NCBI RefSeq assembly: GCF_057098645.1
Contig: NZ_CM169472.1
Strand: one strand, 5' to 3'
DNA length: 64,000 bases
Shown: in pieces, positions 1-3,000 of the stretch
Layout: each line of letters begins with the position of its first letter
How positions within the stretch are numbered: position 1 is the stretch's first letter
Made by a program: the position numbers

Positions 1-3000
1 AGCAAGCTATACCATTTAGTGGTAAAACCCTGCCAGTTGATGCCAAAGCGCGAGCTGTTAAAGGAGTTCACAATCAAAATAATGATTGGGATATACAGGT
101 ACGCGTAGATAGCGGTCATAAAACCGCCGCGAAGCAGTCGACCGATCATTCGAGTTCCACCTTCTTATTCATAAGGCGGGACACTTTCAGGATTTTGAAT
201 TTATTCAATTTTTTCCTTTCTCCAAAATCTCTCCAAAACGTTTCCCCAAAACTAGGCCACGCATTTTACAACACTTTTTCCTGAGATGGTGACGGATATT
301 CCATATGGTGTTTGTCAAATAACCAACTTAACCCATTCCTGACCTCGAGTATCGTTATAGCGATCGGTGGTTGCCTGGACTTTATGTCCTAGTAATGTTT
401 TTGTATCGATACCCTGTGCACGGTACAGCCGTTCTGATAGAGAGCGTTGTTCATGAAATGTTGGCGGAGTTTTTCCTGCTGGTGGAATTACCCCAGCCAG
501 ATCCCGTGCTTTGGCAAAGTAGTCGCTCAGGTTGTCTTTACTCATCGGCTTCGGTTGTTTCTGGTGCCGACTATGGATTAGATATGGACTTAATATTCTG
601 TCTCGGCACCCATCAATAACTTCTTTTAACGTTATCCCAATGGCATCACAGCGTAGTGTAAGCGGTAACGCCAGACGCATTCCGGTTTTTCCCTGGGTGA
701 TATGCAAGTGTTCGTTCCACACATCTGAAAAACGCATGTGGCAAATGTCATCACGGCGCTGACCAGTAACAATCGCAAGAAGCATTGCGTTACGGATAAA
801 GTGTTTTTCAGGCGTTGCGTTGTAAATTTTTTGCCAGTCTTCCAGGGTGAGCCTGGCTCTAGTTACTTTAGGGATCGGTTTACGGGTAGCCTCCGGAGGA
901 TTCCATCCAGGAGGAACTTCCCCTGCATGCTGTGCTTCTTTATAAATATCAACCCATAATCCACGATTTACTCTCGCTGTGCTGACCATGTCTTTATCCA
1001 GCCACTCATCCAGTATTAATGCAAAGTCTCTTACTTCCAGTTCTTTCAATGGGTGGTTTCCCAGACGGGAAACCAGGTATGCAGCCATTCGGGCTTTTTC
1101 TTTGTGAGTTGTAGCTGCAATATCTCCATTTTTCAGTCGCGTGTCCTGTATTTTCAGATATCGATCAACCCATGCCTTTAATCTGATACCCCGACGCTTT
1201 GTTGCTGACGGACTTTCATCAATTTTGCGCATGAAATATTCAGCCTCTGCTGCAGCTATTCGCTGATTGGCTGTGGAAGCGATTTTTTCTGCCTTACCTT
1301 TGTCTGTTCCGAGCCCGTGAAATTTTCCAGTCACAGGGTTTTTATACTGGTAGTAAACTCTGCCAGTTCTGCGATCAAATTTTTCGTAAAGTCCGGCTAC
1401 GTCAGTGCTGTTTTTTCGTGGCCTCGGTGACATGAGTTAAAATCTCCTTCAGTGCATCATCATCGCCAGTATGAATTTCCGGCGCAATTCCTGTTTCACC
1501 AGGTCCAACAAATACTGCTCGGCGATCTATCAGCCAACGCCCACGAATTTTTTGTGGTCTTGGAACGATGTATCCTAGTTTTCCGTATTTCACCAGGGTA
1601 GTGTTTGTTATTGGGAGACTGAACCGTTTTGGCTTCCACTCATCGAGCGTTATCAGGTACTGTTCGCTCATGGCTATCACTCCGGAACGCGCCAGTTGCA
1701 GAATACCAACGACAACTGGCGACGGTTGAACATTAAAAATCAGCCTGACTCGGGATCAGTTTTTGCCAGATAACTGAAACGTATTTTGCCTGATAACGGG
1801 CGTCATCAAGTGCATTATGGCGCTCACCTTCGAATGGAATAGCCGTTCTGGCATCGAAGTCTATGGCTTTCCCCAGCTCAACGATTGTGCGTACATCGCG
1901 ATCGTTGTAGTAACGCCACGGGCAGGGGATCCCCTGCCGTTCGTATGAACGGCGCAAAATCGTGTTGTCGAAGTTGGCTCCATTTCCCCAGACCTGAACA
2001 AAAAATTCACCGGAGTTTTCGTCGATAAATTCCCGCAATTGTAACAGTGCATCATCTAACGGGATTTCATCGGTCATAATGGCAGATTGCGCTTCGCGTG
2101 ATTGCTTAAGCCACCATTTAATGGTGTCCCGATCAATGACTCCGCCAGCAGTTTCCAGATCGATAGTCTTACTAAATTCCGGTCCCATATCTCCGGTTTG
2201 CGGATCGAAAAATATTGCACCTATTGAGATGATCGGGGCATCAGGATTTTTTCCCATGGTTTCAAGGTCGATCATTAGATGGTCACACGTCCTGCTGGTG
2301 GATGTGATTTCTTGATGACCGTTCACCTTAATTGAGTGATCTGCCGTCTCGCCAGTTTCATTATCGCTATCGTGATGCTGATTGCCGCCAGTGTTCTCCT
2401 TGTGTGGATGTTCAGCGCCTTCCATTTTCTCCGGATCATCTTCCTGAACTTCAACCTGATACTCTTCATCGAATGTTTCCTGGTATGTTGCGTCGCCCAT
2501 CACCGCGCCACAATCAGGGCAGTTGCCGCCGCCGGTCTGACCGCAGGCGGTGCAGGCTTTTTCCACTTCCTGTTGCGCCACTGGTTCAGGCTGTTTCGTT
2601 TCTGGCTCGTTTTGTAACGCATTTGGGCTGTTTTGTTCCGCTTTTTGGTAGTTCCGTTCCGATTCATGCTGGTTCTGGTTTACAGAATCGCGGGTCTGGA
2701 TCCCCTTAACCCATTTCGGATCATTCGGGTCGCTAATCCCTGCAACAAATTCTCCGCGAGAGGCAGCAAGCAACTTATCGGCGTCAGGCTGGCTGATATT
2801 GGCTGCCTGCATAATTTTGTTTACTTCGTCAGCGGTAACTTTTACCGGCTCTGGTTGTGCGGTCGTGTCAGATGCACCAGTATTTTGTTGTGAACCTGAG
2901 TATGTACTGTTTTTGCGGGCGAAATATTCTTCTTTCGTGATTTCAGTAGCCCCGGCAGCCAGTGCCTTATCCAGACCAGAAAGTTTGTTTGCGCGACCGT

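Follow-up and report, generated by a model that had tools for sequence, protein, structure and literature searches.

The stretch of DNA analysed here, hereafter the window (64,000 nt, one strand, of contig NZ_CM169472.1 from NCBI RefSeq assembly GCF_057098645.1), carries on its minus strand, at positions 146–172, a very short open reading frame that ends on the start codon of potC. These 27 bases very probably represent the host-proximal attL edge of a lambda-like prophage of the Sakai Sp6 / CFT073 PhipotB type; the ATG would be a by-product of the attachment site, and potC most likely starts on its own Shine-Dalgarno (SD) sequence. An earlier reading, made from the sequence alone, had interpreted the frame as a phage-supplied mini-ORF that could preserve translational coupling into potC after integration. 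The junction anatomy given in that reading is correct. The coupling is unsupported by the SD energies, by the frames found in attP-like sequences and by a GTG allele of the putative start codon.

Anatomy of the two prophage junctions

Reading of the minus strand confirms the nine-codon frame ATG AAT AAG AAG GTG GAA CTC GAA TGA (MNKKVELE, then stop), comprising eight sense codons and a stop, with ATG at 172–170 and TGA at 148–146. The TGA overlaps the potC ATG (149–147) in the four bases ATGA at 149–146. The frame downstream of this overlap, MIGRLLRGGFMTAIYAYLYIPIIILIVNSFNSS..., is identified as potC by its identity to the K-12 potC start and by the RefSeq annotation (WP_000580316.1, in lysogens and non-lysogens alike); the window holds the 5' part of the gene (1–149, minus strand), which runs off the window start. 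As the sequence-only reading had noted, the TGA/ATG overlap is the same as in the native operon: alignment with K-12 W3110 identifies it as the native potB stop, retained unchanged. Bases 171 to 1 are the native potB–potC junction (native ...cgtttgCTGAATAAGAAGGTGGAACTCGAATGAtcgg), and positions 171 to 72 are 100% identical to K-12 potB–potC. Within the mini-ORF, positions 146–171 (minus strand) are a 3' remnant of potB, that is, unchanged host DNA consisting of the TG of a leucine codon (CTG), NKKVELE and the stop. A172 is the first phage-specific base and alone differs from native potB (C to A, converting CTG to ATG); attB and attR carry C, attL and the attP-like sequences carry A, with G in the O103 strain ML775. 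Of the ATG that the phage was thought to place before the ancestral potB codons, A172 is indeed a phage base; the TG is common to phage and host and lies in their shared core, according to the K-12 alignment.

When attB, attL and attR are compared, the junction and a 12-bp identity core can be placed, and the proposal that the site is an attL is borne out: it is the int-proximal junction of a prophage, in this case a 58.3-kb lambdoid prophage integrated in potB. The core, TGAATAAGAAGG, was located by aligning K-12 potAB to the window; it lies at 171–160 (attL, positions 160–171) and at 58439–58428 (attR, positions 58428–58439) and occurs once in the empty site of K-12 potB. A second copy of the 24-nt potB tail was sought in the window and not found, the actual repeat being just 12 bp. 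Position 164 shows a G/A polymorphism, at which attL follows the host allele while attR always carries G. This behaviour, together with a layout parallel to that of lambda (half-site, 7-bp overlap, half-site), suggests that TGAATAA (165–171) is the 7-bp segment in which strands are exchanged, with putative cleavage positions and a putative exact extent. Imperfect inverted half-sites surround this segment of about 7 bp (CCGCCTT-A-TGAATAA-G-AAGGTGG). The phage core-type half-site CCGCCTT (173–179; variants CCACCTT and CCCGCCTT), recognized by allele comparison and folding, forms the 5' arm of a predicted RNA hairpin; the host half-site AAGGTGG (157–163) coincides with the potC SD, as judged by SD energy, and with the 3' arm of the same hairpin.

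The conserved P arm (172–270) is common, in the attL comparison, to prophages that have a 1-kb insert after int and to those that lack it. A motif search of the window for TTTTGGRGA returned five matches, four of which fall within the two att arms: three direct repeats in the P arm (251–219, minus strand) and TTTTGGAGA in the P' arm (58309–58301, minus strand). By sequence, these are candidate arm-type integrase sites. Next to the P arm lie a lambda-type integrase gene (315–1433, minus strand), whose product has Arm-DNA-bind_1 (PF09003, E = 3.7e-21) and Phage_integrase (PF00589, E = 4.8e-18) domains and 44.5% identity to lambda Int over 368 aa, and an excisionase gene (1402–1671, minus strand; Pfam Exc, annotated as excisionase). 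A tRNA scan found none.

At the other junction, potB (58408–59271, minus strand) acquires a C-terminal tail coded by the phage: ...RLLNKK is followed by ATEIDN and a stop (codons at 58428–58408), replacing VELE and its stop. The resulting PotB has 287 aa (...NKKATEIDN) compared with 285 aa in the native protein, and a potB of 864 nt is annotated in lysogens. The P' arm hence continues potB in frame to a nearby stop, as in replacement of a gene 3' end. In other P'-arm variants PotB ends in ATEIDD, VSELDD or VNELDD.

We propose that the prophage entered potB 23 nt ahead of its stop codon by integrase-mediated strand exchange within TGAATAA, which would leave original potB/potC DNA from T171 rightwards and phage DNA from A172 leftwards. 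A172 would belong to the phage core-type half-site (CCGCCTT-A), apparently a loose mimic of the potB sequence (SRLM vs SRLL), and the ATG would therefore be a one-base by-product of the architecture of the attachment site. The ATGA overlap would simply be the retained native potB stop. Where the phage probably does contribute to the integrity of the host gene is the other junction, at which its P' arm would give PotB the substitute six-codon tail and stop.

The phage arm upstream of the core resembles potB in 6 of 10 bases. The ATG may accordingly be part of a diverged potB copy, but the resemblance is equally well explained by the need for both half-sites to bind the same integrase.

Alleles of the start codon and attP-like sequences

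Of 5426 complete E. coli genomes, 1621 carry the phage arm adjoining the core, with at least 93% identity. Genomes of O157:H7 and of the CFT073 lineage (clone D i14) match the junction at 99% or more, and O157:H7 DEC4E was read base by base. Twenty sequences (15 attL, three attP-like and two contigs cut inside or at the core) were compared at the position of the ATG: 19 have ATG and one has GTG. The GTG allele belongs to the O103 strain ML775, whose phage-arm sequence is matched exactly in three genomes. As a sample for start-codon conservation this set represents a single lineage, all phage arms being at least 93% identical, with no independent lineage among them. Conservation of the ATG across lysogens would be explained by common descent, because the rest of the phage arm is likewise at least 93% identical across the 1621 genomes.

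A start codon at this position appears to be no more than chance would give. The core fixes TG in codon positions 2 and 3, so that three of the four possible phage bases (all but C) would yield ATG, GTG or TTG, and a start codon is to be expected about three times in four. The ATG itself is nearly invariant across about 1600 lysogens, an observation that weighs against a by-product.

A contiguous arrangement of P arm, core and P' arm (P-O-P', attP-like) was found in three IMG/VR viral contigs (L038, L081 and L082), which may represent either tandem prophages or phage DNA in circular form. The ATG-led frame is already present in all three, where it reads MNKKV[N/S]ELDD and then stops. Because the same ATG-led frame sits in these P-O-P' junctions, the ATG does not seem to be created by integration. 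A search of the GenBank phage collection for a free-phage attP, with DNA and protein queries, returned none; the only close GenBank phage records, ON470612 and ON470619, were discarded as attP sources, as they are prophage excerpts that retain potC and potD and show attL.

Translation and transcription of potC in the lysogen

The native SD of potC, GAAGGTGG, is intact 8 nt upstream of the start (-9.8 kcal/mol, within the top 1.4% of positions); it is retained because it lies in the core and the host arm. ATG172 has no SD. Its pairing with the anti-SD amounts to -1.8 kcal/mol, and 56% of sampled positions on the minus strand of the window reach -2.0 kcal/mol or better, i.e. exceed it. The mini-ORF does end on the downstream start, as a coupling ORF would, and it has no ribosome-binding site of its own and apparently receives no ribosomes from upstream: the int stop is located 143 nt before ATG172 and in another frame. 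We infer that the mini-ORF is untranslated; initiation at AUG172 without an SD, in its A/U-rich context, is possible. If expressed in the lysogen, potC would most likely initiate on the retained SD at 8-nt spacing, and its transcripts would probably read out of the prophage at the int end. In the published RIBOseq analysis of Sakai, scoring was restricted to ORFs of at least 30 aa, and potC is absent from the supplements. Searches of the literature on potABCD and prophages, and on prophages, translational coupling and attL, found nothing relevant.

In RNA reading through the junction, the potC SD AAGGUGG is predicted to base-pair with CCGCCUU of the phage half-site in a 7-bp hairpin, with ATG172 within the loop and positions -7 to -1 before the ATG forming the 5' arm. 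The predicted cost of opening the potC initiation region is 12–14.7 kcal/mol in the lysogen vs about 10 kcal/mol in the native operon, an increase that may make potC more reliant on upstream translation in the lysogen than it is natively. The z-scores of the att hairpin are not significant (-1.2 to -1.7). Covariation of the C and C' half-sites was examined as a sign of a selected hairpin and dismissed: L038 is a mismatch among no more than four attP combinations, and a single Int protein, WP_000074983.1, is found together with either C-site variant. The predicted CCGCCUU/AAGGUGG pairing, which raises the opening cost, and a frame that is open for 40 codons upstream, from a TAA at 268, are two features at odds with a pure by-product.

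All effects at the level of translation would be moot if the insertion were polar and potC and potD were barely transcribed in uninduced lysogens. We consider this rather unlikely, although several features of the locus point in its direction. About 58 kb of prophage lie between the potA promoter and potCD; within 550 nt upstream of potC, a looser promoter scan gave no sigma-70-like candidate above 8/12 consensus matches; and in some prophage variants int and the P arm are separated by convergent genes and a hairpin resembling a terminator. In lambda, moreover, int transcription is low in the repressed lysogen. A scan of positions 1–1800 found no promoter on either strand and, against an orphaned potCD, no terminator between int and potC. 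PotC is identical (WP_000580316.1) in K-12 and in most lysogens checked, one lysogen (L009) having a different accession (WP_000580305.1); this lack of decay is a weak argument, given short divergence times. In addition, the phage keeps PotB in frame, and there would be no point in this with a lost transporter. Should potCD be orphaned nevertheless, PotABCD would take up less spermidine, or none, in about 30% of E. coli genomes.

A longer phage-borne leader might also couple to potC. In the ORF listing the mini-ORF is the tail of an in-frame 20-codon ORF that starts at TTG208 (146–208, minus strand; MNKFKILKVSRLMNKKVELE, then stop) and reads through the predicted att hairpin. Here the site and the phage arm would keep potC translatable: the hairpin would occlude the SD, and ribosomes translating the TTG208 ORF would unwind it and end on the potC start at the ATGA. 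We regard both this mechanism and its role for the locus as improbable. The ORF is preceded by the SD-like sequence GGAGAAAGGA (-6.4 kcal/mol, 5-nt spacing, top 10% of positions, an ambiguous value), the frame from 268 to 146 is open in all 15 attL sequences examined, and the hairpin is predicted to sequester the potC SD. On the other hand, the SD-like GGAGA motifs are units of the tandem arm-type repeats and are accounted for independently of translation, TTG starts translation weakly, and a run of twelve codons without a stop has a chance probability of about one half. The C-site variants alter the peptide (VSRL to VLHL) with no sign of constraint, sequence divergence is too low to gauge conservation, and the hairpin, as stated, is not significant by z-score. 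If true, about 30% of sequenced E. coli genomes would hold a prophage that supplies potC with a surrogate upstream cistron.

The coupling originally suggested, in which ribosomes start at ATG172, translate eight codons, terminate at TGA and re-initiate at potC as after native potB, is highly improbable: the ATGA overlap is intact, the ATG occurs in nearly all lysogens and upstream translation would be of use given the predicted hairpin that covers the potC SD, but ATG172 lacks an SD and is weaker than most sampled positions, starting there requires melting the very hairpin whose 5' arm precedes it, potC keeps its strong SD, the frame pre-exists in attP-like sequences, a GTG variant exists in O103 ML775, a start codon at this position is a frequent chance event, and the ribosomes needed would have to come from upstream, although no promoter above 8/12 consensus matches was found between int and potC. 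Were it true, the prophage would compensate translationally for splitting a host operon, and the consequences for spermidine uptake would extend to roughly 30% of sequenced E. coli genomes, O157:H7 and uropathogenic lineages among them. What the by-product reading yields instead is the potB att site resolved base by base: core, likely overlap, half-sites, arm repeats and phage-coded PotB tails.

Comparison with known prophage sites and coupled operons

The potB/potC site is a published prophage locus, occupied by Sakai Sp6 and CFT073 PhipotB (PMC8190617, PMC9997748, PMC7067040, PMC3573123), and the mini-ORF is not discussed in these publications. The mini-ORF is most simply the att leftover to be expected when a lambda-like prophage inserts at the 3' end of potB. 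Sp6, PhipotB and O145:H28 PP_potB share the integration locus with the prophage described here, which differs in cargo (58.3 kb vs published sizes of about 44–50 kb).

With lambda attL the site shares an integrase with Arm-binding and catalytic domains, an adjacent Xis, an int gene that reads toward the junction, a short core between imperfect inverted half-sites that end in CTT and AAG and lie about 7 bp apart, and arm repeats in P and P'. The lambda attP core is CAGCTTT-TTTATAC-TAAGTTG. The core found here, TGAATAAGAAGG, differs from it, its cleavage positions and arm-site binding are presumed by analogy, and integration is into an operon, at the last potB codons, whereas the attB of lambda is intergenic.

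According to Campbell's rule, prophages such as phage 21 and e14 in icd integrate into gene 3' ends and bring a substitute end. The potB prophage resembles these in integrating within the last eight potB codons and in a P' arm that continues the frame to a stop (ATEIDN, or V[S/N]ELDD). Unlike them, the substitute PotB tail differs from the native VELE, and the potB target overlaps the downstream gene, which leaves the displaced native tail on the potC start.

As in ATGA-coupled operons, the four-base overlap, the downstream gene and its SD are those of native potB–potC. The native upstream ORF, however, is a fully translated gene of 285 codons, whereas the upstream frame in the lysogen has eight codons and no SD (or 20 codons and a doubtful SD) on a putative transcript.

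Interruption of potB by the prophage

Alignment of the potA-potB-potC locus of K-12 W3110 to the window yields two blocks: potA and potB through ...CTGAATAAGAAGG match window 59939-58428, and TGAATAAGAAGGTGGAACTCGAATGATCGG... matches window 171-72 with 100% identity. In the window, therefore, an insertion of 58.3 kb of foreign DNA (172-58427) splits potB, and a 12-bp direct repeat, TGAATAAGAAGG, borders this insertion on both sides (171-160 and 58439-58428). The integrase gene (315-1433, minus strand) adjoins the potC-side junction (attL) and encodes lambda Arm-DNA-binding and tyrosine-recombinase catalytic domains, with 44.5% identity to lambda Int; the excisionase gene (1402-1671) follows it. 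The motif TTTTGGRGA is present in three tandem copies at 251-219 and once at 58309-58301, accounting for four of its five occurrences in 64 kb; as this is the placement expected of arm-type integrase sites, these copies are candidates for such sites. By every sequence-level criterion that can be tested, attL agrees with a lambda-type att site.

At the far, potB-side junction (attR), the reading frame of potB crosses into phage DNA unshifted, and the protein ends in ...RLLNKKATEIDN instead of ...RLLNKKVELE; this 864-nt phage-tailed gene is annotated as potB in lysogens in RefSeq. The junction also fits every testable sequence criterion for a phage that gives its target gene a new 3' end, and the arrangement is the classic one of a temperate phage integrating in a gene 3' end and bringing a substitute end. 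The potB/potC region is an established prophage insertion locus, as described for PP_potB in O157:H7 clade 8 (PMC9997748), a prophage in O145:H28 (PMC7067040), PhipotB in CFT073 (PMC3573123) and Sp6 in Sakai (PMC8190617); potC is listed as a Stx-phage site (PMC8065619).

The replacement tails of PotB (window 58408-58428, minus strand, and seven further loci, L095-L098, L038, L081 and L082) fall into two diverged families of the phage arm beside the attR core (P' arm), ATEIDN*/ATEIDD* and VSELDD*/VNELDD*. Each tail has exactly 6 codons and a stop; the families differ at 8 of 21 nucleotides, with conservative amino acid substitutions. Directly downstream of the rebuilt potB, at the prophage end and on the same strand, lie ORFs of 75 aa (58165-58392, minus) and 453 aa (56683-58044, minus), the latter with only a weak leucine-rich-repeat match (LRR_EndoS, 20.3 bits versus a Pfam cut-off of 27.9). 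Both are so placed that transcripts from the pot operon promoter could run into them, and they may be cargo genes (moron or effector-like). Beside xis, an ORF of 823 aa (1733-4204, minus) carries at its C terminus an Rv2179c-like 3'-5' exoribonuclease domain (E = 2e-67); its counterpart is labeled as exodeoxyribonuclease VIII in some records and as a pseudogene fragment in O145 RM9872. Two records filed as partial genomes of Escherichia phages vB_EcoS-640R1 and vB_EcoS-813R8 (ON470612.1 and ON470619.1) carry host potC and potD beside int and are prophage excerpts with bacterial flank, rather than packaged phage genomes.

Expression of potC in the lysogen

The minus strand at 172-146 reads ATG AAT AAG AAG GTG GAA CTC GAA TGA, encoding MNKKVELE and a stop, which confirms the coordinates and sequence first given for this mini-ORF. 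Its stop overlaps the potC start (149-147) in an ATGA at 149-146; the frame from that start, MIGRLLRGGFMTAIYAYLYIPIIILIVNSF..., is annotated by RefSeq as potC (WP_000580316.1) in genomes with and without the insertion. The sequence-only reading had proposed that a phage-supplied ATG, the potB tail and the overlap together could preserve translational coupling into potC. This anatomy holds; the coupling function is unsupported.

For each start codon, the energy of a duplex between the preceding 20 nt and the 3' end of the 16S rRNA was computed and ranked among sampled minus-strand positions of the window. The potC ATG reaches -9.8 kcal/mol (top 1.4%), identical in lysogen and native contexts. 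Its Shine-Dalgarno sequence, GAAGGTGG, 8 nt 5' of the ATG, lies wholly inside core and host arm and so survives integration intact. The ATG at 172 reaches -1.8 kcal/mol, and 56% of sampled positions reach -2.0 or better. As a coupling leader, the mini-ORF clearly shows the stop/start overlap only and lacks the expected ribosome binding site.

Folding predicts that in lysogen RNA the phage half-site CCGCCUU (179-173) pairs with AAGGUGG (163-157) of the potC Shine-Dalgarno region, in a hairpin of 7 bp (8 bp with the CCACCTT variant) whose 9-nt loop contains the AUG of the mini-ORF. Over 50 nt, the minimum free energy is -11.4 to -13.1 kcal/mol in the lysogen versus -6.2 in the native locus, and making the potC initiation region accessible is predicted to take 12-14.7 kcal/mol instead of about 10. 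Compared with shuffled sequences, the z-scores are not significant (-1.2 to -1.7). The predicted hairpin is the att inverted repeat seen at the RNA level. If formed, it would make potC more likely to gain from upstream translation. It also spans positions -7 to -1 of the mini-ORF start, so a ribosome starting there would need to melt the same structure without a Shine-Dalgarno sequence. For upstream translation, a 20-codon frame starting at TTG208, in frame with the mini-ORF and preceded by GGAGAAAGGA (-6.4 kcal/mol, top 10%), is the better candidate. Yet the GGAGA units ahead of it are the arm-type repeats themselves, its start codon, TTG, is a weak one, and the 12-codon stop-free stretch is unremarkable; that a phage-borne leader frame carries ribosomes via the att-derived hairpin to the potC start is very improbable.

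No sigma-70-like promoter meeting the scan criteria was found in window 1-1800, a looser scan upstream of potC gave at most 8 of 12 matches, and no terminator was predicted on the minus strand between int and potC. With neither element found, potC transcripts in the lysogen would most plausibly read out of the int end of the prophage; lambda leftward transcripts likewise read across attL. Poor expression of potCD in the lysogen is the alternative. The published Sakai RIBOseq analysis covers intergenic ORFs of at least 30 aa only, and potC is absent from its supplements.

A subset of these prophages (L009 and L012, both at about locus positions 600-1500; L031, L045, L051 and further IMG/VR loci) carry about 1 kb of inserted DNA after the int stop, ahead of the conserved phage arm beside the attL core (P arm). 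Within this insert, two genes lie on the opposite strand, one encoding a DUF2335 protein and the other small and hypothetical, and a GC-rich CCCCGG...CCGGGG hairpin comes immediately after int; past it, homology to the window restarts at TGTAAAATGCGTGG (window 270). Such genes and hairpin would insulate potC further.

Phage and host bases in the attachment site

The empty site reads tctcgt(t/c)tgC-TGAATAAGAAGG-tggaactcgaatga, attL gtcccgcctTA-TGAATAAGAAGG-tggaactcgaatga and attR tctcgtctgC-TGAATAAGAAGG-caacagaaatagataattag. Hence only A172 of the ATG is phage-specific; TG already lies in the core common to phage and host, and from there on the sequence is that of native potB through its stop. 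Unoccupied sites carry the core alleles TGAATAAGAAGG (K-12 W3110), TGAATAAAAAGG (KSC64) and TGAACAAAAAGG (Ch1), all synonymous. In lysogens, position 164 is A or G at attL, both alleles being known from unoccupied hosts, but G in every attR copy examined. This would place strand exchange within TGAATAA (171-165) and suggests that a mismatch directly adjacent to this segment does not stop the integrase.

On three IMG/VR contigs (L038, L081, L082), P arm, core and P' arm are contiguous in an attP-type junction, ...CC(G/A)CCTT ATG AAT AAG AAG GTG A(A/G)C GAA TTA GAT GAT TAA. Judged by these contigs, a short ATG-led frame, MNKKV[N/S]ELDD*, appears to predate integration and to be present in the unintegrated arrangement; integration merely exchanges its tail for that of potB. 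The host leucine codon is CTG with TG fixed by the core, and a phage base A, G or T gives ATG, GTG or TTG; a start codon is therefore expected in about three of four cases, and ATG in about one of three or four. The comparison took in twenty junction-type sequences (the window, 11 RefSeq/GenBank attL, 3 IMG/VR attL, 3 attP-like and 2 contigs truncated within or at the core): 19 have ATG and one, O103 ML775, has GTG, its phage-arm sequence matching exactly in 3 genomes. Of 5426 complete E. coli genomes, 1621 contain the 57-nt phage arm plus core, always with at least 93% identity. Since the arms are this similar, the near-invariance of the ATG probably reflects inheritance of a nearly identical arm rather than independent conservation. 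The prophage integration site itself is already known, and the mini-ORF is most likely a by-product of it.

Across genomes, the P' arm is much the more diverse of the two: its identity falls to about 80%, whereas that of the P arm stays at 93% or above. The phage core-type half-site (window 173-180; L005-L008, L011, L081, L082) occurs as GTCCCGCCTT, GCCCCGCCTT and GCTCCACCTT; CCGCC and CCACC forms both accompany an identical integrase protein (WP_000074983.1), and in the CCACCTT form the half-site makes a perfect inverted repeat of 8 bp with host AAGGTGGA. A minus-strand A-run at 275-279, in caggAAAAAgtg, has 5 A versus 6 A in the nine other aligned sequences keeping this stretch; it is a homopolymer in the non-coding P arm, and the difference may be a sequencing artefact.

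The lambda core is CAGCTT-T-[TTTATAC]-T-AAGTTG. The layout of the window, CCGCCTT-A-[TGAATAA]-G-AAGGTGG, parallels it, and by this analogy A172 would be the base that separates the phage core-type half-site from the overlap region.
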